Shown: positions 10,259 to 59,389 of the stretch, in pieces | Layout of the letters: every line of letters begins with the position of its first letter | Numbering within the stretch: the stretch's first letter is position 1 | Origin: Escherichia phage vB_EcoM_011D4 | Strand: one strand, 5' to 3' | DNA length: 64,000 nt | Sequence record: MT478991.1 | Made by a program: the position numbers and the translations under genes | Notes under the pieces: generated by a model | The model's database searches: none | What the model was told of the DNA's origin: nothing | What the model saw: only the letters and a program-made list of their open reading frames with translations

Positions 10259-10291
10259 AATATATTCCTCAATGTTTTTCTTGATGGGAGT

Positions 10292-10320
10292 ATCTTACTA
10301 CTCCCTTAATCCGGTGTCAA
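10292..10320 (-). promoter_or_regulatory. Sigma70-like early promoter (TTGACA-N17-TAAGAT)
   Basis: - strand reads aaaaagtagTTGACAccggattaagggagtagTAAGATactccc; -10 sits inside the palindrome GGGAGTA..TACTCCC; AT-rich UP region. Confidence 0.6.
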
Positions 10321-10540: not shown

Positions 10541-10569
10541 GTGATTCTCCTTTCGTTTGGTATGGGAGT

Positions 10570-10598
10570 ATCTTACTACTCCCGTTTCTTTACGTCAA
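10570..10598 (-). promoter_or_regulatory. Sigma70-like early promoter (TTGACG-N17-TAAGAT)
   Basis: - strand TTGACGtaaagaaacgggagtagTAAGATactccc; same GGGAGTAgTAAGATACTCCC core as at 10292. Confidence 0.6.
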
Positions 10599-10605
10599 CT
10601 GGTTT

Positions 10606-10848
10606 TTAGAAATTTTTCGCTTCTTCTTCGGTCATCATAACCGCGCATTCGTGCATAACTTTGAAAACCGGATCAATCATGTCGAATGCTTCGCGAGACA
10701 GTTTACGAGAAGCGATTTTGATTGCTTCAACGTCTTCTACTACAGGAACAAAAACAGTTTTCAGTTCATCGAGCACGGCAGCTTCTTTTTCATTCAGGAA
10801 GATTCCAGCGTCGTACAGTGCAACTTCGATAACATTAACTTTAACCAT
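10606..10848 (-). CDS. Hypothetical protein (80 aa)
   Basis: Track start (10911) lies upstream of the predicted transcription start; ATG at 10848 has a GGAGGAAATAAAA RBS. Confidence 0.45.
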   Translation of the reverse strand: MVKVNVIEVALYDAGIFLNEKEAAVLDELKTVFVPVVEDVEAIKIASRKLSREAFDMIDPVFKVMHECAVMMTEEEAKNF

Positions 10849-10882
10849 TTTTATTTCCTCCAGTTCGTTTCGGTATGGGAGT

Positions 10883-10911
10883 ATAATACTACCGATGACC
10901 TTTGGCGTCAA
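10883..10911 (-). promoter_or_regulatory. Sigma70-like early promoter (TTGACG-N17-TATTAT)
   Basis: - strand TTGACGccaaaggtcatcggtagTATTATactccc; overlaps the 3' end of the upstream ORF. Confidence 0.5.
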
Positions 10912-11122
10912 CTGCTTTTTTATTATTTTCGTGAAAATTTTTCGTTGCCTCTAGGTTCTTTTCGACCTTCATCCATTCCGCGTATTCTTGCGCGGCTACT
11001 TTCGGATTTAGTCCGTCTTCGTACATTGCATCGAGTAATTCTTCGTCGGTGGGCTTATACCCTAGATAAGCCTCCACCTGATTTTTCCAAATTTTATACC
11101 AGTTCATATTATCACCAATCAA
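10889..11122 (-). CDS. Hypothetical protein (about 72-77 aa)
   Basis: - strand ORF; start uncertain (ORF-track start or ATG at 11107, MNWYKIW...). Confidence 0.4.
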   Translation of the reverse strand: MIGDNMNWYKIWKNQVEAYLGYKPTDEELLDAMYEDGLNPKVAAQEYAEWMKVEKNLEATKNFHENNKKAVDAKGHR

Positions 11123-11384: not shown

Positions 11385-11415
11385 CTTTGATTCTCCTTTT
11401 GTTTGGGATGGGTGT

Positions 11416-11444
11416 ATTATGCAATGATGGATTTGTGAAGTCAA
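11416..11444 (-). promoter_or_regulatory. Sigma70-like early promoter (TTGACT-N17-CATAAT)
   Basis: - strand TTGACTtcacaaatccatcattgCATAATacacccatc; the -10/+1 context recurs at 62006 and 63249. Confidence 0.5.
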
Positions 11445-11449
11445 CAACT

Positions 11450-11484
11450 TTTTAAAATAAAAAGCCGACCACAAGGATCGGCTT
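11450..11484 (-). terminator. Rho-independent terminator
   Basis: - strand AAGCCGATCCTTGTGGTCGGCTTTTTATTTT just after the stop at 11494; nearly the same hairpin as the + strand terminator at 1561. Confidence 0.6.
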
Positions 11485-18894: not shown

Positions 18895-20718
18895 TTATGA
18901 TTGCATCCAAATTTTGCGCTGATCTGCATCTTCACTATAGAGCAAATCGAATAGCTCTTTATAGTTTTCCGGCAACGTGATGATTTCCATTACAGGATCG
19001 TTGATCACGCGATGATAATCTGATTCTGTAAGCGATGCTAACCCTTTGATATATCGAATGCTATAACCTTTGATATTATCTCGGTCGTTCTCAAAATCTT
19101 CTAGGTCATAATACCATCGAACATCATTACCTTTCTTTTGTTCCGCAATGATAATAGGTGTTTTGATAAACCGGATTCGTCCATCTTCGAACAATTCAGG
19201 CCAACGAGCAAAGAAAGAAATCAGACTAGGTTTAATAGACCCGATCCCGTCAGTATCAGCGTCTGTCATAATCGCAATATTTTTGTATTGCATAACTTCC
19301 AGCGCATCAACACCAAATTGCAAACCAGTGATCGCCATGATGTTAAAAATTTCGGCGTTCTTAACGATCTTTGCCTCTGGTTGTTCCCACGTTGTAAGAG
19401 TTTTACCTCGCAACGGGAAACCGCCATGTAAATCTTGATCACGTACAGAGATCAGATAGTTGATCGCGGAATCACCTTCCGTCAAAAACAGGGTAGTTTC
19501 TGCGTCAGTTCCAATAAGGTTAGCTTTAACGTGTTTTGCTACCTTAGCCCGTTTTGCTGCCTTTGCTGCCTTAGTCGCTGCCGCTTTATCTGCTGCCTCT
19601 TTGCGTGCCAGGACTACAGCAATAATAGGCATGATAATGTTTTCTTTCTTCGCAATGACTTTAGCCAGCTTTTTAAAATCAAGATCAATATGACGCTTGA
19701 TATCACCAGTTGGATTAGTCAATCGTTCTTTTGTCTGTGAATCAAAACGGAGGTTTGGCAATTCACGAACAATAAGAATACAGGTCAATCCAGACTTAAC
19801 CGCAGCTTTAGTAACATCAACCTTATATTCTTTCTTGATTCGTTTTACAATCTCTTCACAAAGATCATCTGTCACGTAGTCTACGTGTGTTCCCCCGTTT
19901 TTGGTAAACAGACCATTAGCAAATGATACTGATTTAAAACCTTCACCTTCAACCGCAGGAACTAGGGCAAGTGAAAAGTTTTTATCTTCAATGACAAACG
20001 GATCATCATTGTATAGTTTAGCATAATCCTTGAACTTACTAACAATACGTTTACCATTAAACTTAAACGTGATCTTAGGAAATATTACGCTCAATGATTG
20101 CAGACGATCATGAACAATATCTAAAACAGAGTTGTCCATCATATAACCTTCGAAGTGGTCGAAGTCTGGGCAAAATGTAACCTTTGTTCCCTTCAATTTT
20201 GATGGTTTCGATGACCATGTGATATTTTCAGCACCGTTTGTACATTGAACGGTCATTTCTGTTTCGCCGTCACAGGTCACACCAGTAAACCAATCGCTAA
20301 AGAAATTTGACAACGACGACCCCACACCGTTCATCCCTTGCGTTAGTCGATTTGTATCATCAAAGTTAGACCCTGCTTTTGTTCGTGTCCATGCGGCTAC
20401 AGGTTGCGGAATCTGCGTGCCCTCTGGGGTAGTAACCATATGTTGAGGAATACCGCGACCATTGTCTGTTACCGTAACAATATTGTTTTGGATATCGACG
20501 CTAATCACATTGGCAAATTCAAAGTTAGTGCGGATCGCCTCGTCTACAGAGTTGTCGATGATCTCATCAATGATTTTAACCAGTCCTGGAACATATGAAA
20601 TTTTTGTCCATTTACCGAACAGGAAACGTTGATGTTCTTCGTAAGTTGTTGATCCTATATACATTCCTGCACGCTTAAGGACATGTTCACGATCAGATAA
20701 AATGCGAAACTCACTCAT
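18895..20718 (-). CDS. 39: DNA topoisomerase II large subunit (gp39, GyrB-like), unsplit
   Basis: 607 aa; GyrB/ATPase motifs (RAGMYIGS, DNGRGIP, VDYV...); single continuous ORF with no gene-60 split. Confidence 0.9.
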   Translation of the reverse strand: MSEFRILSDREHVLKRAGMYIGSTTYEEHQRFLFGKWTKISYVPGLVKIIDEIIDNSVDEAIRTNFEFANVISVDIQNNIVTVTDNGRGIPQHMVTTPEGTQIPQPVAAWTRTKAGSNFDDTNRLTQGMNGVGSSLSNFFSDWFTGVTCDGETEMTVQCTNGAENITWSSKPSKLKGTKVTFCPDFDHFEGYMMDNSVLDIVHDRLQSLSVIFPKITFKFNGKRIVSKFKDYAKLYNDDPFVIEDKNFSLALVPAVEGEGFKSVSFANGLFTKNGGTHVDYVTDDLCEEIVKRIKKEYKVDVTKAAVKSGLTCILIVRELPNLRFDSQTKERLTNPTGDIKRHIDLDFKKLAKVIAKKENIIMPIIAVVLARKEAADKAAATKAAKAAKRAKVAKHVKANLIGTDAETTLFLTEGDSAINYLISVRDQDLHGGFPLRGKTLTTWEQPEAKIVKNAEIFNIMAITGLQFGVDALEVMQYKNIAIMTDADTDGIGSIKPSLISFFARWPELFEDGRIRFIKTPIIIAEQKKGNDVRWYYDLEDFENDRDNIKGYSIRYIKGLASLTESDYHRVINDPVMEIITLPENYKELFDLLYSEDADQRKIWMQS

Positions 20719-21662: not shown

Positions 21663-21905
21663 TTAAATATCCTCCGCGATGTGCCGGAATAACTCCAGAT
21701 CATTTTTATCAAGAATGAAACCGCTACAATCAATAATTCCTTTACCGTAATTATCGGTTAACAGTCGGTCCGTTGCCATGTATTCGCGTACTTTGTTGTT
21801 AAAATTCATTACATGTTGTGCATAGTCACAATGAATCTTTTGACGGTTCCACGCGACAATTGATTGTAGATGTATTACATTAGCCATATCATTAATAACA
21901 ACCAT
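21663..21905 (-). CDS. Hypothetical protein (80 aa)
   Basis: ORF whose 5' end lies inside a 60-bp direct repeat. Confidence 0.4.
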   Translation of the reverse strand: MVVINDMANVIHLQSIVAWNRQKIHCDYAQHVMNFNNKVREYMATDRLLTDNYGKGIIDCSGFILDKNDLELFRHIAEDI

Positions 21906-21919
21906 ATCAAAAACCTCGC

Positions 21920-22084
21920 TTAGTGGAATGTTCTGGCATTTTTATTGATACATTCAGCTTGGTAGTCACGAGATTTTTTTGACGAATTAAGAGCTACAGC
22001 CAAAAAATCCTGTAACTGCTCGTTTGTCATTTTTGGCTTACGACGCGTATCTAAACTCTTCGTTCTTCTAACTTCATTAGCCAT
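21920..22084 (-). CDS. Small ORF (54 aa) flanked by 60-bp direct repeats
   Basis: MANEVRR...AECINKNARTFH; start 1 nt after the upstream stop; below ORF-track threshold. Confidence 0.3.
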   Translation of the reverse strand: MANEVRRTKSLDTRRKPKMTNEQLQDFLAVALNSSKKSRDYQAECINKNARTFH

Positions 22085-22085
22085 A

Positions 22086-22253
22086 TCAAAAACCTCGCTT
22101 AGTGAAATGCTCGATCATTTTATTGATACATGCAGCTTCACTATCGCCGGACACGTTCCAGCCGTATAGACCCCATCTAAAGCACATGGTAACAGTTCCA
22201 TTGTGACGGCTTACCGTCACATCATTAAATTCTGGGATACTTCGCATAATCAT
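22086..22253 (-). CDS. Small ORF (55 aa)
   Basis: MIMRSIPEF...AACINKMIEHFTKRGF; GAGGA RBS after the dda stop; C-terminus parallels 21920..22084. Confidence 0.3.
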   Translation of the reverse strand: MIMRSIPEFNDVTVSRHNGTVTMCFRWGLYGWNVSGDSEAACINKMIEHFTKRGF

Positions 22254-22263
22254 AATAATTTCC

Positions 22264-23655
22264 TCAAATATAGTCTACTCGATACCGCGCACGGGTAACA
22301 CCCACATATAATAACTGCATTGCCAATTCAAAGTCAACATTGTCTGTACACATACAAGGAGTATACAGGAACACGCGGTCTACGCTGATCCCTTGTGACT
22401 TATGAATGGTGCAAGCTGGTAATGCTTTTACATTCAAGAACATACGTTTCATCGTCCAGAAGGAATCCCAATCTGGTTTAAATTTTGGATTCTCTTTCTT
22501 CATTTCGCGATATTGTCCGGCGACCGTATTCAGATAGATAGAGAAAATGTTCTTCTGACGTTGTTCTGTCAGAATGTTGATTTCTACTAAATCCGGTTTA
22601 TCTGTAGTGATTCCGACTGCATCTAAACCGACTTTCTGATTTAGGATTTCTTTGTCTTCGTCATCATCGACGCTTTCCACTTTCAGAGTATAGCCTAAAA
22701 CTGGTTGCGGATCTACCCCCGTGCAACGTAATGTAAATTCACGCGGTATAACCTCTTTAACCCGGATCATCTCACCATTGTTAAAAATAACATTGGGAAT
22801 TTTCTTCCCGCGTTCATCTCGCAGATATTCGATCAACGGTTCCTGAGTAACCAGAATTTCATCTACAATCACTGGTTCATCGGTGTTATAAACGCGCTTG
22901 CGCACAATTTCATTGAGTTTTTCGACGCTCTTGTTAGTGTAAGCCAGAATACGGTTTTCTAGAAGGTCTTCCGGCGTTTTAACGGTTTCGAAATAATGCT
23001 TCATAAACTCCGGCAGAGTTGAGCTATGGAATACACCCTCGTTACCGCACTGCTTTTCGAATACCCATTTACCGTTACGGACAGCGGTCGCCACATCAAT
23101 GATCGGTGCATTAGATCGTTTAATTTCTGTCAACTCCACGTTTTGAAAATTTTCATCCGTGAAGAAAGGAGAAATTGACGTTGCACCGCTCGGATCAACT
23201 GGTCGTAACTGGTGCGGATCGCCAACTGCAATAACAACAATTCGACCGTTGATACTCTTCATGAGAATATCAAATAGTTTCTTATCGACCATACTCGCTT
23301 CATCAACAATGATGATCTGAACATCATCTAGCTTAGGAGTATCTTTTTGCTCAAATACTTGAGTATCTTCATAGTTGGTCGGGTTTAGTCGCAGTAGTGC
23401 ATGTAAAGTAAATGCTTGACGACCTACCGCTTTACTCAAAACTTTTTTAGCCTGGTGGGTAGGCGTTGCCAAAACCACACCAGTTACACCACGGCGGACC
23501 ATTTCCTGAACAATGAATTTCATCATTGCGGTTTTACCAGTACCCGCCGCACCACGGACAGTTGTATGCTTCTTTTGTTCAATGCGTTTCATTAGAACAT
23601 CAAAAGCATGTTTTTGCCCGTCTGTTAACATATCGAAAGTTAATACTCTGCTCAT
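22264..23655 (-). CDS. dda: Dda DNA helicase (SF1)
   Basis: N-terminus FDMLTDGQKHAFDVLMKRI...GAAGTGKT; blocks VLATPTHQAKK, SNAPIIDVATAVRNGKW, AYTNKSV, LLYVGVTRARY match Dda as recalled. Confidence 0.9.
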   Translation of the reverse strand: MSRVLTFDMLTDGQKHAFDVLMKRIEQKKHTTVRGAAGTGKTAMMKFIVQEMVRRGVTGVVLATPTHQAKKVLSKAVGRQAFTLHALLRLNPTNYEDTQVFEQKDTPKLDDVQIIIVDEASMVDKKLFDILMKSINGRIVVIAVGDPHQLRPVDPSGATSISPFFTDENFQNVELTEIKRSNAPIIDVATAVRNGKWVFEKQCGNEGVFHSSTLPEFMKHYFETVKTPEDLLENRILAYTNKSVEKLNEIVRKRVYNTDEPVIVDEILVTQEPLIEYLRDERGKKIPNVIFNNGEMIRVKEVIPREFTLRCTGVDPQPVLGYTLKVESVDDDEDKEILNQKVGLDAVGITTDKPDLVEINILTEQRQKNIFSIYLNTVAGQYREMKKENPKFKPDWDSFWTMKRMFLNVKALPACTIHKSQGISVDRVFLYTPCMCTDNVDFELAMQLLYVGVTRARYRVDYI

Positions 23656-46083: not shown

Positions 46084-46908
46084 TTACCAACCTCGCTCTT
46101 TACCGATCAAAAATTCAACCTCACGACGTTTAATGTCTTCTTGAAGGTCTTTAATCTTCTGGCGATCTTGCATGATTTCATCCATCTTGTCAAGTGCTGC
46201 AATAAAATCATCGAAACGTTCAAAGGTTTTACCTTCATTTGCTTCGCCAAATTTAACCATAGTCAGACCGTAACGACTACTAAACAGACGTTTCAACTGC
46301 CCAACGATCTTAGAATCAGTAGTGACGACTTCCAATTCTTCTACTTCTTGAAAGAATTTTCTATCAGAATCAATAAACCAGCTAGTTCCTTTATGGTCTT
46401 TATCTTCGGTTGCACTCATTAGAGTATGGTCTTTACCATCAATTTCAATTACATCAATTTGCCCACATGGACTAACCTTTTTAACAGTAAAAGGTCTATA
46501 ATTTATTGCTCGTGCAATAACATAATTAAGGTTAGATACGTTTTCAGCATAATGACAGAAGTCGGTCATAGCATTCGCATCTTTCCAAGTATAAGTTTTA
46601 CCAACTTCCCATTTCTGGGGAACTTCTTCAACTTCACGAAAGAATTTTCTGTCAGTAGGACTAAAGAAAAATGATGCCGTCCACAATTCATTTTCTGTAA
46701 CAGAGTCTACCGTATGCTCAACCCCATCGAGTTCTATTACATCAATCCAATCGCCATCTTCGACCTTGTTGATGGTAAAAGGCTTATCACCAATAGATTT
46801 TCTGATATCGTCATTAAGTGGAGAAAGGCAACCACCACCACAATTAACAAAATCTGTTTTAGCTTTTTCATCTTTCCAGGTGTAAGTTTTACCAATTTCC
46901 CATTTCAT
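46084..46908 (-). CDS. Hypothetical protein; module family (2 tandem modules)
   Basis: MKWEIGKTYTWKDEKAKTDF and QKWEVGKTYTWKDANAMTDF start two internal repeats, each followed by ...IDVIE(L/I)DG...DRKFF(R/Q)EVEE. Confidence 0.5.
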   Translation of the reverse strand: MKWEIGKTYTWKDEKAKTDFVNCGGGCLSPLNDDIRKSIGDKPFTINKVEDGDWIDVIELDGVEHTVDSVTENELWTASFFFSPTDRKFFREVEEVPQKWEVGKTYTWKDANAMTDFCHYAENVSNLNYVIARAINYRPFTVKKVSPCGQIDVIEIDGKDHTLMSATEDKDHKGTSWFIDSDRKFFQEVEELEVVTTDSKIVGQLKRLFSSRYGLTMVKFGEANEGKTFERFDDFIAALDKMDEIMQDRQKIKDLQEDIKRREVEFLIGKERGW

Positions 46909-46920
46909 AATATATTCCCC

Positions 46921-47400
46921 TTAACCGATTTTATCAAGTTCGTTTAATGCTTTCTCTGCTTCCTGTATAGCTTGCACCCTTTCCGGCATTTTGTCAAGAA
47001 AATCTTTCAACTCTTCAAAACTGGAGATATGACGCAAGGCGTTAGCACCGATAGCCGCATGTGATTTGCATTCAAAGCGGATTTTATAATTATCCATCGC
47101 CAACTTGAGAAGATCAATTAATTTAGATTCTTCTGGAATAATAATTTCTTCAAATCTGCTACGGTCATGATCCAGAAACCAACAAGATAGACCTACATCG
47201 GTTGAACTAATATAAGTTCCATCATGAAGATAAACAGACCGCACGTATCCTTTTTTCGCATCAACCGACGCAACTTTAAACGGTAATCTCAGATATTTCA
47301 AATAATCAACATCATACCATTTAAAAAATTGGTTTGCATCTTTTACATCTTTCCACGCATAGGTCTTACCAGCTTCCCATTTCATAATATCATCTCTCAT
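46921..47400 (-). CDS. Hypothetical protein; module family (1 module)
   Basis: MKWEAGKTYAWKDVKDANQFF...PFKVASVD...; C-terminal coiled coil. Confidence 0.5.
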   Translation of the reverse strand: MRDDIMKWEAGKTYAWKDVKDANQFFKWYDVDYLKYLRLPFKVASVDAKKGYVRSVYLHDGTYISSTDVGLSCWFLDHDRSRFEEIIIPEESKLIDLLKLAMDNYKIRFECKSHAAIGANALRHISSFEELKDFLDKMPERVQAIQEAEKALNELDKIG

Positions 47401-47926
47401 TTTTGATACGTGATTCTAATTGGATCATACGGTCGCGCGTTTGCTTGTATTCTCGGATAGCACCGATCCGGCTAGGCATACCATCAAGCACGCTCTTAAT
47501 ACCTTCTAGGGTAGTAATTTTGGCAATGCTATTATGTAACCCCATCTTATCGATCAACTGAATGTCGTAGGCTTCCATAAGCAGACCCAGGCGTTCTAAA
47601 GTTAGGTCTTCTTCTTTTTCTTCCGAATCTGGAATCTTAGGTTCAATAGTAACTTCGGTAAAGAAACGACGCTCACCCGACCAAAACCACACACCGGAAC
47701 AGCCAATAGGGGATTCTTTTAACGTCATAGAGTCGAAATTACTACCAATAATAGTAATTTCTCTAACATCACCATCATCGTCAAGGTCTTCTACCCTAAA
47801 CGGGCGACCAGCCAACAAGTCAACAATACATCTGTTAATAGACGACGAAAATTTAGTCAGTTCGGCTTTCGACGCTTCGCATTCAATCTTGTAAGTTTTA
47901 CCAACTTCCCATTCCATAATAATCAC
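47390..47926 (-). CDS. Hypothetical protein; module family (1 module)
   Basis: MEWEVGKTYKIECEASKAEL...RPFRVEDL...VREITIIG...ERRFFTEV. Confidence 0.5.
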   Translation of the reverse strand: MIIMEWEVGKTYKIECEASKAELTKFSSSINRCIVDLLAGRPFRVEDLDDDGDVREITIIGSNFDSMTLKESPIGCSGVWFWSGERRFFTEVTIEPKIPDSEEKEEDLTLERLGLLMEAYDIQLIDKMGLHNSIAKITTLEGIKSVLDGMPSRIGAIREYKQTRDRMIQLESRIKNER

Positions 47927-53471: not shown

Positions 53472-53502
53472 AATATAATCCTCTCGTTGTTTAGATGGGA
53501 GT

Positions 53503-53531
53503 ATCTTACTACTCCCGTTTCATCATGTCAA
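53503..53531 (-). promoter_or_regulatory. Sigma70-like early promoter (TTGACA-N17-TAAGAT) inside GGGAGTA..TACTCCC palindrome
   Basis: - strand TTGACAtgatgaaacgggagtagTAAGATactccc; core identical to promoters at 10292 and 10570. Confidence 0.6.
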
Positions 53532-54112
53532 GCGTTAAATGACTTTTGGATCTCTTTCAGTTCAGCTACTTTATCTGCGCTATATTTTGCTTGATGTTCC
53601 ATGCGCTTAATCTCACCTTTGATATAGGTTTCTAGCTTAGGTTTATTCTCAATCAAAAAATCTTTCAGGTCATCGGCATTTTTAAAGTATAGCTGATTAT
53701 CAACGCTAAAATCTTCCAGCGTCAATGATACCAAAGAAGACTTCGCAAACAAGTTAATCAGATCTTCCAGCGATTCTTCTTTCTTAACTGGCTTCATTTC
53801 TTCAAACTGCTTTTTAGTGATACGCTTAAAGTATTTGCGCTCGCTGGCATCAATCATGATTGATGCGCCCTCATAATCATGAGTTTCTACCAAATACACT
53901 TTACCCATAACATTAACAGTCAGAACTTTAAAGCCCTTGTGAAGCACACCATACAGGAACTTGTTATGTTGTGGATAGCGTTTAACAAATTCCTCTGCGG
54001 ACTCAGCATTACGGAAAGTGTAATAACGACCTCGTTCAAAAACAGCATCATTTGAAGACTTAGCCGGATACAATTTATACGTTTTCTGTACCATAATATA
54101 ATCCTCTATCAT
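53528..54112 (-). CDS. Hypothetical protein; module family (1 module)
   Basis: RGRYYTFRNAESAEEF...GFKVLTVNVMGKVYLVE...ASERKYFKRI. Confidence 0.5.
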   Translation of the reverse strand: MIEDYIMVQKTYKLYPAKSSNDAVFERGRYYTFRNAESAEEFVKRYPQHNKFLYGVLHKGFKVLTVNVMGKVYLVETHDYEGASIMIDASERKYFKRITKKQFEEMKPVKKEESLEDLINLFAKSSLVSLTLEDFSVDNQLYFKNADDLKDFLIENKPKLETYIKGEIKRMEHQAKYSADKVAELKEIQKSFNA

Positions 54113-54381: not shown

Positions 54382-54412
54382 TGTTGATTCTCCTTCTTGA
54401 TTAGATGGGAGT

Positions 54413-54441
54413 ATTTTACTACTCCCATTTCTTATTGTCAA
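54413..54441 (-). promoter_or_regulatory. Sigma70-like early promoter (TTGACA-N17-TAAAAT) inside GGGAGTA..TACTCCC palindrome
   Basis: - strand TTGACAataagaaatgggagtagTAAAATactccc directly after the gp49 stop. Confidence 0.6.
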
Positions 54442-54444
54442 CTA

Positions 54445-54933
54445 CTATCTTAATCTTTGTATAAATTGTTTCTTATACTTCTTCGTGATCTCTTCTCTTG
54501 TATCAGCGTCACAATAATCGAAGCCTTCTGCGTCCATAATAGCAACCATCTCCGCGCGTGTCAAGCGTGAAAATCGTTTTACTTTATCAACAGCATATTG
54601 AGGATGTAAATGATTGTTGGTGTAGTCTCCTTTGATGTAATTAACATAGTTTGTCGCCCAAACAACGAAATCAGCACCTAAAGCACCAACACCAAACCGT
54701 TTAAAGTCTCCGGTCAACGATCCTTCTAGGCGGTTGCAACACGAATGAAGCAATCCCCTTACGCGGCCTTGCCCTTTACCATCTAGATCGTGGTCGTGGT
54801 CAAGATGGTTTTTGCTCATATCCTCAAAAAGTGGCAATTGACAAAGGGGGCAAATGCCCCCCTGTTTTTCGAATAGTTCTTGTTTGTACTCTTTAGCACT
54901 CTTAGCAGTCAGTAACATAAATTCACCCTCCAA
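54445..54933 (-). CDS. 49: Endonuclease VII (gp49, Holliday junction resolvase)
   Basis: 162 aa; N-terminus MLLTAKSAKEYKQELFEKQGGICPLCQ...HLDHDHDL...GRVRGLL matches T4 endo VII as recalled. Confidence 0.85.
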   Translation of the reverse strand: MEGEFMLLTAKSAKEYKQELFEKQGGICPLCQLPLFEDMSKNHLDHDHDLDGKGQGRVRGLLHSCCNRLEGSLTGDFKRFGVGALGADFVVWATNYVNYIKGDYTNNHLHPQYAVDKVKRFSRLTRAEMVAIMDAEGFDYCDADTREEITKKYKKQFIQRLR

Positions 54934-58678: not shown

Positions 58679-58916
58679 AGTTTACCCACTCAACAAGATC
58701 TTTACCTAACTCGAAAGCCCATTCTCGGTCTTGCTTTACGTTTTGTAGGTATGGGCTTTCCGACACTCGACGAAGTGATCTTGTCGTAACAAGAATGATC
58801 CCAGGAATGGTCGGATGTTCTTTTCCATATACAATAGGACGCGAGTCACTATCAATACCTTGTAAGAAGGTGTATCCTGAATCACTTAGAATCATATACT
58901 TTTTCATTTCACACAT
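58578..58916 (-). CDS. Hypothetical protein (112 aa)
   Basis: ATG at 58916 overlaps the upstream stop; basic C-terminal tail overlaps the next ORF in another frame. Confidence 0.4.
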   Translation of the reverse strand: MCEMKKYMILSDSGYTFLQGIDSDSRPIVYGKEHPTIPGIILVTTRSLRRVSESPYLQNVKQDREWAFELGKDLVEWVNCEDKNQRNHERKIARNVHRKKLDEIKNRILQSM

Positions 58917-59173
58917 CACAGATTCCTCAACCAGTTATTAAAGCGAGCAAACCATGATGCTTTTCGTGCTTCTTTTACTTTATGTGCACGAAAACCACTG
59001 AAACACCATTCATAATCATCACCGAAACATGATTCAACAGGAACACCCGCATTTCGTAGTTCTCTGGTCTTTATCATGAATCCTTGACATAAGGGTCGAC
59101 CTTCAACAATGATAGGAAGTTTAACTTTTTCCATGAAATTATACCCAGCACGGTCAATAATTTCAATCTTCAT
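58916..59173 (-). CDS. Hypothetical protein; small paralog family B
   Basis: MKIEIIDRAGYNFMEKVKLPIIVEGR...AGVPVE; paralog of 59192..59389 and 61743..61964. Confidence 0.45.
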   Translation of the reverse strand: MKIEIIDRAGYNFMEKVKLPIIVEGRPLCQGFMIKTRELRNAGVPVESCFGDDYEWCFSGFRAHKVKEARKASWFARFNNWLRNL

Positions 59174-59191
59174 AATATAATCCTCAATTAG

Positions 59192-59389
59192 TTATACCGC
59201 CCAGGCTTCATTTGCACGAAAACACCATTCATACTCAGGAAAATAACCTTTAATTGGCACGCCAGCTTTTTGTAGTTCCTGCGTTTCTACAAGATAATCA
59301 AGCCCATAACGACGACCTTCCACGATGATAGGAAGTTTAACGCCATTCATGAAAGAAAATCCACCATCATCAATAATTTCAATTTTCAT
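59192..59389 (-). CDS. Hypothetical protein; small paralog family B
   Basis: MKIEIIDDGGFSFMNGVKLPIIVEGR...AGVPIK; tandem to 58916..59173. Confidence 0.45.
   Translation of the reverse strand: MKIEIIDDGGFSFMNGVKLPIIVEGRRYGLDYLVETQELQKAGVPIKGYFPEYEWCFRANEAWAV

Follow-up and report, generated by a model that had tools for sequence, protein, structure and literature searches.

A small gene between duplicated gene junctions in the early operon of Krischvirus phages: a cassette probably gained and lost by recombination between direct repeats

Background

Why do some phages of a genus carry a small gene between two neighbours that lie directly side by side in their relatives, and by which route might such a gene come and go while the operon around it stays in working order? 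The question is raised by ORF009.1, a mini-gene in a 64-kb stretch of DNA (64,000 nucleotides; hereafter, the window) of Escherichia phage vB_EcoM_011D4 (MT478991.1). The region is 94-98% identical to phages of the genus Krischvirus of the Straboviridae, i.e. the RB49/Phi1/JSE group to which the window phage belongs, and its gene order on the minus strand is dda - ORF010 - ORF009.1 - ORF009 - dexA. The locus is a small accessory-gene cassette inside the tightly packed early operon dda-ORF010-ORF009-dexA.

That the presence of this gene varies has already been published: under the name ORFan009.1, it was described as a Phi1-specific gene, absent from RB49 and lying outside the hyperplastic regions (Arbiol et al. 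2010, PMC2839356), although the main text of that article, its supplementary tables apart, gives neither a mechanism nor a flanking motif for it. Here, I show that ORF009.1 is bracketed by two copies of a gene junction, only one of which is kept by the relatives devoid of the gene. From comparative evidence it is very probable that the locus is an accessory-gene cassette flanked by junctions, and that recombination between these direct repeats accounts for its gain and loss.

Results

The cassette consists of a unique core, X, set between two direct copies, A and B, of a junction repeat, J (Table 1). Both copies were found where the first-pass annotation had located its imperfect direct repeats, 179 bp apart, and each, as it had also proposed, covers the 3' end of one small gene and the ribosome-binding site and start of the next; the site is GAGG, and a stop codon and the next ATG are included. 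When aligned on the coding strand, copy A (59 nt) and copy B (58 nt) agree in 52 of 59 columns, with six mismatches and one 1-nt gap, and their starts are 179 nt apart, or 178 after the 1-nt indel. The longest uninterrupted identity between them is 24 nt in the window and 27 nt in Phi1; the 24-nt core, CACTAAGCGAGGTTTTTGATATGG, occurs at exactly two places in the window, even with up to three mismatches allowed, and not once in 100 dinucleotide-preserving shuffles. X has no second copy anywhere in the window, and in whole Krischvirus genomes J is restricted to the cassette locus: records without the cassette match it once, those with the cassette twice.

Read in the coding direction, each J takes in the final ~17 codons of the gene before it (..CINKM.EHFTKRGF), with a Shine-Dalgarno (SD) sequence GAGG embedded among them, and then TGA, a single nucleotide and the next ATG; J is coding sequence with a 1-nt intergenic gap, and the repeat proper stops at ATGG. 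Copy B is the native 3' end of ORF010, made up of its last 17 codons (..AACINKMIEHFTKRGF), the TGA stop, 1 nt and then the ATG and following G of ORF009.1, and copy A repeats this junction at the 3' end of ORF009.1 and leads into ORF009. In the window, the A4 run of copy A is lengthened by one A, which puts the ORF009.1 tail out of frame (..ECINKNARTFH, then a TAA stop at 21920-21922, 17 nt ahead of the ORF009 ATG); this is why ORF009.1 has 54 amino acids here, as against an in-frame 58 in Phi1. Since the same extra A is found in phage PHB13 and in the metagenome contigs L031 and L032, it is a real allele.

The further suggestion that three successive open reading frames (ORFs) share both of their ends held only in part. 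The ..ECINK.. C-terminus is common to ORF010 and ORF009.1 (as ..CINK..), but ORF009 ends in ..RHIAEDI; likewise, MAN opens ORF009.1, but in ORF009 it forms residues 7-9 (MVVINDMANV) and is absent from other haplotypes, relatives having MVVINNVANV or MVVINDISKV at this N-terminus, the KFS-EC clade MMIIDEIDKL, and the cassette-bearing contigs L033 and L034 the ISK form. Being internal to ORF009 and haplotype-specific, this MAN therefore lies outside the repeat.

Table 1. Features of the cassette locus in the window (positions count from the first letter of the 64-kb stretch)
Feature	Position	Strand	Description
dda	22264-23655	minus	
ORF010	22086-22253	minus	55 aa; PHROG 16162; upstream of the cassette; donor of the J tail
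ORF009.1	21920-22084	minus	ORFan009.1 of Phi1; PHROG 37371; 54 aa here, 58 aa in Phi1
ORF009	21663-21905	minus	80 aa; PHROG 15021; downstream of the cassette; J copy A closes with its start codon
J copy B	22081-22139	minus	junction repeat; ORF010 3' end to ORF009.1 start
SD of copy B	22093-22096		CCTC on the plus strand
J copy A	21902-21960	minus	junction repeat; ORF009.1 3' end to ORF009 start
SD of copy A	21914-21917		CCTC on the plus strand
Unique core X	21961-22080	minus	120 nt; ORF009.1 codons 2-41, ANEVRRTKSLDTRRKPKMTNEQLQDFLAVALNSSKKSRDYQ
179-bp unit (X plus one J)	21902-22080	minus	missing from JSE, RB49 and 39 other related phage records
T5 run	21939-21943	minus	A5 on the coding strand, four in relatives; +1 frameshift in the ORF009.1 tail

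When the structure of the locus is compared among related phages, repeat-bounded variation is indeed present. The arrangement J-X-J occurs in 17 of 58 related phage records (14 distinct phages), and the other 41 (34 close relatives and 7 more divergent ones) keep a single J and lack exactly one period, so that the three ORFs do not recur as a constant set among the relatives. The missing unit is 179 nt long (178 in Phi1-type genomes), and the locus spans ~620 bp in cassette-less records vs 801 bp with the cassette. A good example is JSE, in which, in a three-way alignment, ORF010 leads through one J directly into ORF009. In an alignment of 28 genomes (13 cassette-bearing and 15 cassette-less), all 15 of the latter have exactly one J at the empty site, and the ends of the indel match the repeat edges in every genome examined. 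Non-chimeric cassette-less metagenome contigs likewise hold a single J, and further metagenome contigs show the same two states, a scan of IMG/VR and metagenomes having added only a handful of extra loci. In the KFS-EC/AV108 clade (~77% identical), ORF010 and ORF009 are present and the cassette is absent.

Could the two states be an artefact of assembly or sequencing, due to a collapsed or expanded repeat or to homopolymer errors? The variable sites do include error-prone homopolymer runs (A4/A5, A7, T6). However, 14 phages sequenced independently of one another, and several metagenome contigs besides, have J-X-J, ~38 phages have a single J, and even the extra A of the window recurs elsewhere, as seen above. 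A structure that appears in so many independent genomes is therefore no artefact, and this explanation deserves next to no weight.

As to the provenance of the repeat, the tail of ORF010 is kept at the amino-acid level in the KFS-EC/AV108 clade (CINSMIDHFTKRG.), with nucleotides differing from those of the RB49 group; since this clade is cassette-less, J is therefore native ORF010 coding sequence. A tandem duplication of ORF010 (or ORF009) followed by divergence, which would make ORF009.1 an old paralogue with ends similar through translation signals, is in keeping with the similar lengths of ORF010 (55 aa) and ORF009.1 (58 aa), with their common last ~17 codons and with the near lengths of the gene units (169 vs 178-179 nt). 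Outside J, however, the bodies of the two genes score as shuffled sequences do, both as DNA (local score 14 vs 14.5 ± 2.2) and as protein (12 vs 15.3 ± 3.1); the two belong to different PHROG families, which cross-match in the tail only; the homologue of X belongs to an unrelated family of phages and sits at a J-free locus; and the divergent KFS-EC/AV108 clade possesses both resident genes in the absence of the cassette. The shuffle tests rule out ORF010 and ORF009.1 as diverged tandem paralogues, and the duplication scenario as a whole is very improbable. Of the earlier proposal of a 'cassette duplication or insertion' through recombination between repeats, the insertion and the recombination have stood and the duplication has not, the bodies being no more alike than shuffles and X having its homologue in N4-like contigs; the duplicated part is the junction, not the gene.

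The family of ORF009.1 is tiny. A word-indexed search returned 8 clusters, and the two whose contigs were looked up, P0004 and P0005, share the same dda-ORF010-ORF009.1-ORF009-dexA context; an exhaustive HMMER profile search of 1.84 billion representative proteins gave four real hits only. One of these four, P0013 (49 aa; E = 4e-6), is encoded by N4-like phage contigs (L035-L038) in which its neighbour genes match Pfam Phage_N4_Gp1 and Phage_N4_Gp2, and the closest cultured relatives are Escherichia N4-like phages, at ~75% identity. Between X and P0013, 45 of 52 nucleotides are identical (local score 69 vs 15.2 ± 2.2 for shuffles, with a maximum of 31), as are 23 of 36 amino acids (BLASTP), and five of the seven nucleotide differences in the aligned block, when read in frame, are synonymous (counted by eye). 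When P0013 was searched back by tblastn against 50,697 phage records, Krischvirus ORF009.1 alone was retrieved; P0013 is missing from every cultured N4-like phage of the phage collection, and J is absent from the N4-like locus carrying it. P0013 lies at 3001-3150 of L035 (and in L036-L038; JGI 3300007106 / 3300007143), in a divergent region beside the gp1 homologue.

Because its only relatives outside the locus are in N4-like coliphage contigs, I infer that X was acquired laterally, and the mechanism of its insertion is inferred likewise. The most economical reading would be an insertion, between ORF010 and ORF009, of a mini-gene that N4-like coliphages also possess, the junction having been duplicated in the process.

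Traces of exchange between the repeats are visible on both sides of the polymorphism. In the cassette-less aligned genomes, the retained J is B-type in 14 of 15 and A-type in PHB13 only. The single J of PHB13, the nearest cassette-less relative of the window (98.8% identity in a search with the 801-nt locus), equals copy A of the window at all six diagnostic substitutions and in the extra A, and its ORF010 consequently ends in ..ECINKNARTFH. Exchange between J copies, or single-strand annealing, is expected to leave either an A-type or a B-type single J; both being present, no fewer than two separate events are required. Along similar lines, copy A of phages Makalu001 and Makalu003 has the B-type sequence of their own genome (ATGATCGAATATTTC), and in contig L039 copy A is likewise B-type, as is copy B of the same genome. 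In L039, moreover, the X set between the same J copies is a divergent allele that differs by a 9-nt insertion and several substitutions; X therefore behaves as an exchangeable module.

Four haplotype groups each include phages with the cassette and phages lacking it whose 114-nt ORF010 bodies are identical. When mapped on neighbour-joining trees built for either flank, the state of the cassette takes 11 and 9 Fitch steps, compared with 9.5 ± 1.4 for permuted labels. This absence of association with the flanks may reflect recurrent loss or gain, crossovers hugging the cassette, or both, which the test alone cannot separate.

A separate observation concerns the metagenome contig L044 (OQVL01009936.1), in which a GC-rich segment (1-260) takes the place of the ORF010 body and meets the phage sequence precisely at GTGAAGCTG, where J has its left edge. 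The segment contains an ORF (..EVEVRLYQPVNG..GRVTVTVGKNEVGFDKSQIALVKL) which may resemble bacterial RimP. The probable explanation of L044 is a chimera, at the level of the contig or of a read, with 9 nt of microhomology, its breakpoint nonetheless lying at the cassette boundary.

The two copies might, alternatively, be alike through function, a C-terminal peptide module or a translational-coupling element being kept independently in each, and the indel might result from unrelated illegitimate events. The tail of ORF010 is under purifying selection across the divergent clade, stop and start abut (TGA-n-ATG) at both junctions, and in the metagenomic allele P0005 (L031/L032) two compensating frameshifts bring the C-terminal tail of ORF009.1 back. 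Such selection would, however, hardly be expected to make the copies agree at synonymous positions and co-vary within genomes, as they do in the Makalu phages and L039, or to let the ends of the indel coincide with the repeat. The tail of ORF009.1, furthermore, has been lost to four independent frameshifts at homopolymer runs among the 13 cassette-bearing aligned genomes (+A in the window, -T in pEJ01, +A in ECD7 and -A in the Makalu phages), and L039 adds another frameshift allele (A3). Because of this recurrence the borrowed tail looks weakly constrained, and similarity through function is an improbable explanation. In all, the ORF009.1 frameshift alleles amount to at least five independent ones, the compensated pair of P0005 among them, at runs A4/5, A7 and T6 (window 21939-21943; L011, L012, L015, L016, L031, L039). 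ORF010 is intact in 27 of the 28 aligned genomes, its tail being shifted in PHB13, and ORF009 in all 28.

The ratio of nonsynonymous to synonymous polymorphism (pN/pS) is ~0.37 in the first 28 codons of ORF009.1, much like the 0.29 of the ORF010 body, both sequences being short and the comparison of low power. About three quarters of the genus can do without the gene, and its product is presumably a dispensable early protein. Pfam has nothing above cut-offs for ORF010, ORF009.1 or ORF009, and all three PHROGs are listed as 'unknown function'. An AlphaFold2 model of ORF009.1, built on a 4-sequence alignment, has three helices at low confidence (predicted local distance difference test, 65); a ribbon-helix-helix fold was considered and is unsupported by this model.

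The repeats might also be promoter/terminator modules of a mobile regulatory cassette of the promoter-early stem-loop (PeSL) type, as in RB49 and Phi1. The phage group is the same, J also ends in an SD and a start codon, and the outcome is the same too, viz. a differential ORFan between two motif copies, one of which is left in relatives without the ORFan (PMC2839356). A promoter scan of the coding strand, however, detected no sigma-70-like site in either J copy (region total 12, vs 10.6 ± 3.4 in shuffles), and no terminator-like site or hairpin lies within either copy; J is coding sequence with a 1-nt gap, in place of an AT-rich intergenic region; and only copy B folds better than shuffles (z = -2.55, compared with +0.61 for copy A). 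The PeSL stem-loop GGGAGTAGTAAGATACTCCC, for its part, is found in the window only at 10286-10305, 10564-10583, 53497-53516 and 54407-54426, all on the minus strand, so that the real PeSL stem-loop of this genome is ~11 kb away from the nearest cassette edge, and ORFan009.1 is placed outside the hyperplastic regions in the main text of Arbiol et al. (PMC2839356). Devoid of promoter and stem-loop, and unique to its locus, J is therefore no PeSL, and this identification, exceedingly improbable, was rejected.

Two observations on signals may be added. A PeSL-type repeat family is present in the window at 10542-10611, 10855-10924, 11388-11457, 53475-53544 and 54385-54454; the motifs are built of a TTGAC(G) -35 element, GGGAGTAGTAAGATACTCCC overlapping a -10-like TAAGAT, AGGAGAA and a start codon, and lie upstream of small ORFs in two clusters. 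The motifs at 10.3, 10.6, 53.5 and 54.4 kb are genuine PeSLs and offer an in-genome contrast to J. Copy B can form a hairpin (AGUGAAGCUGCAU...GAGCAUUUCACU; 22099-22139, minus strand) located 5' of the SD, with a minimum free energy of -22 kcal/mol for its 91-nt context, whose pairing is not kept in copy A. Rfam has no match for J, and a structured RNA in the repeat was discarded as a candidate, copy B alone folding better than shuffles.

Other genes of the window and of its relatives are worth recording. Two adjacent genes of 85 and 65 aa (58916-59173 and 59192-59389, minus strand) are tandem paralogues over their whole length (MKIEIID..VKLPIIVEGR..YEWCF) and, unlike J-X-J, represent a true gene duplication. 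Three adjacent genes at 46084-47926 (minus strand; 274, 159 and 178 aa) have a common N-terminal module (KWE.GKTY.WKD...), present twice in the first of them, and are a tandemly expanded paralogue family. Closer to the cassette, phages Skers (L006), PHB13 (L017), G2248 (L018), MIZ6 (L023) and JEP8 (L026) have, at locus positions 1-616, a gene annotated as endonuclease or endonuclease VII directly downstream of ORF006.1, where the window (18895-20718) and most other relatives have topoisomerase gene 39 instead. The difference resembles an indel of the homing-endonuclease type, ~1.5 kb away from the cassette, and could contribute to the local mosaicism.

Discussion

How, then, would the cassette come and go? 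In this arrangement X continues in frame into a copied ORF010 tail, and ORF009 retains its native ribosome-binding site; the duplication of the junction would keep every gene of the operon expressed and, at the same time, leaves direct repeats at a spacing of 179 bp. Exchange between these J copies during phage replication, perhaps by unequal crossing-over, single-strand annealing or copy-choice, would cleanly remove X together with one J. The cassette could be regained by the reverse exchange, or by ordinary crossovers in the near-identical flanks in mixed infection.

Several points weigh against this scheme. No recombination event was directly observed, the evidence being wholly comparative, and the stretches of uninterrupted identity, 24 nt and, in Phi1, 27 nt, are short for efficient T4-type homologous recombination, so that a J x J event should be rare per infection. 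The patchy distribution could, for the most part, go back to a single gain that flank crossovers have spread through a highly mosaic population, and not to many J x J deletions; similarly, the product seen in PHB13 could have arisen by gene conversion of the ORF010 tail and then ordinary deletion. On the side of the N4-like contigs, P0013 partly overlaps a predicted opposite-strand gene, and the putative transfer between N4-like phages and Krischvirus may have run in either direction.

A bolder extension, which is unlikely, would regard duplicated junctions (upstream C-terminal codons, SD, stop and start) as promoter-less 'linkers' by which the polycistronic early operons of T4-like phages capture foreign mini-genes, with translation unbroken, and later shed or swap them. 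If so, such linker junctions would be a second, translation-level counterpart of the PeSL/integron-like shuffling of cassettes, and the breakpoint of L044, at the same AAGCTG edge of J, would hint at a preferred break site.

Whatever the merit of that extension, recombination between the direct J repeats makes the locus a compact natural example of how a single gene may be added to, or removed from, an operon with its neighbours undisturbed, the duplicated junction providing both a ribosome-binding site and the homology for clean excision. Modular shuffling in T4-like phages has hitherto been associated with promoter/terminator motifs of hyperplastic regions, and would thereby be extended to a coding junction in a conserved region. 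Likewise, the link of a Krischvirus ORFan to N4-like coliphages would be a concrete trace of gene flow between unrelated families of virulent phages. On the practical side, for therapy-oriented Krischvirus isolates the locus is an unstable marker, unsuited to typing.

Comparison with known systems

The phenomenon belongs to a known class, the repeat-mediated modular shuffling of T4-like phages, and is a fairly ordinary case of it. What is new is that the repeats are a junction of coding sequence and translation initiation, not a promoter-terminator motif; that the natural products of two different exchanges, together with homogenised repeat copies, are visible; and that the unique core X has a relative in N4-like phages. 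The sole ORF of the cassette (54-58 aa) has no Pfam match above cut-off, and the cassette has no Rfam match; as no enzyme is encoded, it is therefore not a self-mobile element.

Singer and Westlye reportedly described, in 1988, deletions between short direct repeats in phage T4. The homology requirement of such T4 deletions (Singer et al. 1982) and their endpoints (Mosig et al. 1998), both cited in PMC2839356, offer a close parallel, for there, too, non-essential small ORFs of the dda-side early region are lost by short-repeat exchange with the general phage recombination and replication machinery only. Those deletions, however, are of laboratory origin, many of them at GGGC/GCCC, whereas the J cassette is a natural polymorphism with a 59-nt gene-junction repeat and homogenised copies.

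Morons (Hendrix et al. 2000, discussed in PMC2839356) resemble the cassette in being one extra gene of unknown function, probably of lateral origin, between two resident genes. They have, however, their own promoter and terminator and no flanking repeats, whereas the J cassette relies on operon transcription and on a duplicated ribosome-binding site; lacking a promoter and terminator of its own, it is therefore no moron. The 'linkers' of Botstein and Campbell (discussed in PMC2839356) share with J the principle that conserved flanks ensure the placement and expression of an exchangeable module, the divergent X of L039 being comparable in this respect. Yet such linkers are common to many phages, whereas J is a duplicated junction made at one site, and the N4-like locus of X is J-free.

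Among the nearest relatives of the J cassette, to conclude, are the PeSL and ORFan cassettes of RB49, Phi1 and other T4-like phages, the first two from the same genus (Arbiol et al. 2010, PMC2839356; Comeau et al. 2014, PMC4122927). In these, a small ORFan is bracketed by two motifs of ~60-100 bp ending in an SD and a start codon, ORFan-less relatives keep one copy, and recombination between the copies is the proposed route of excision and insertion. J differs in having no promoter, stem-loop or AT-rich spacer and in being the coding 3' end of the upstream gene; it is unique to its locus, whereas PeSLs form a dispersed family of ~50 copies per genome. Finally, PeSL cassettes are transcriptionally insulated, whereas the J cassette is co-transcribed and translationally abutted to its neighbours, outside the hyperplastic regions.

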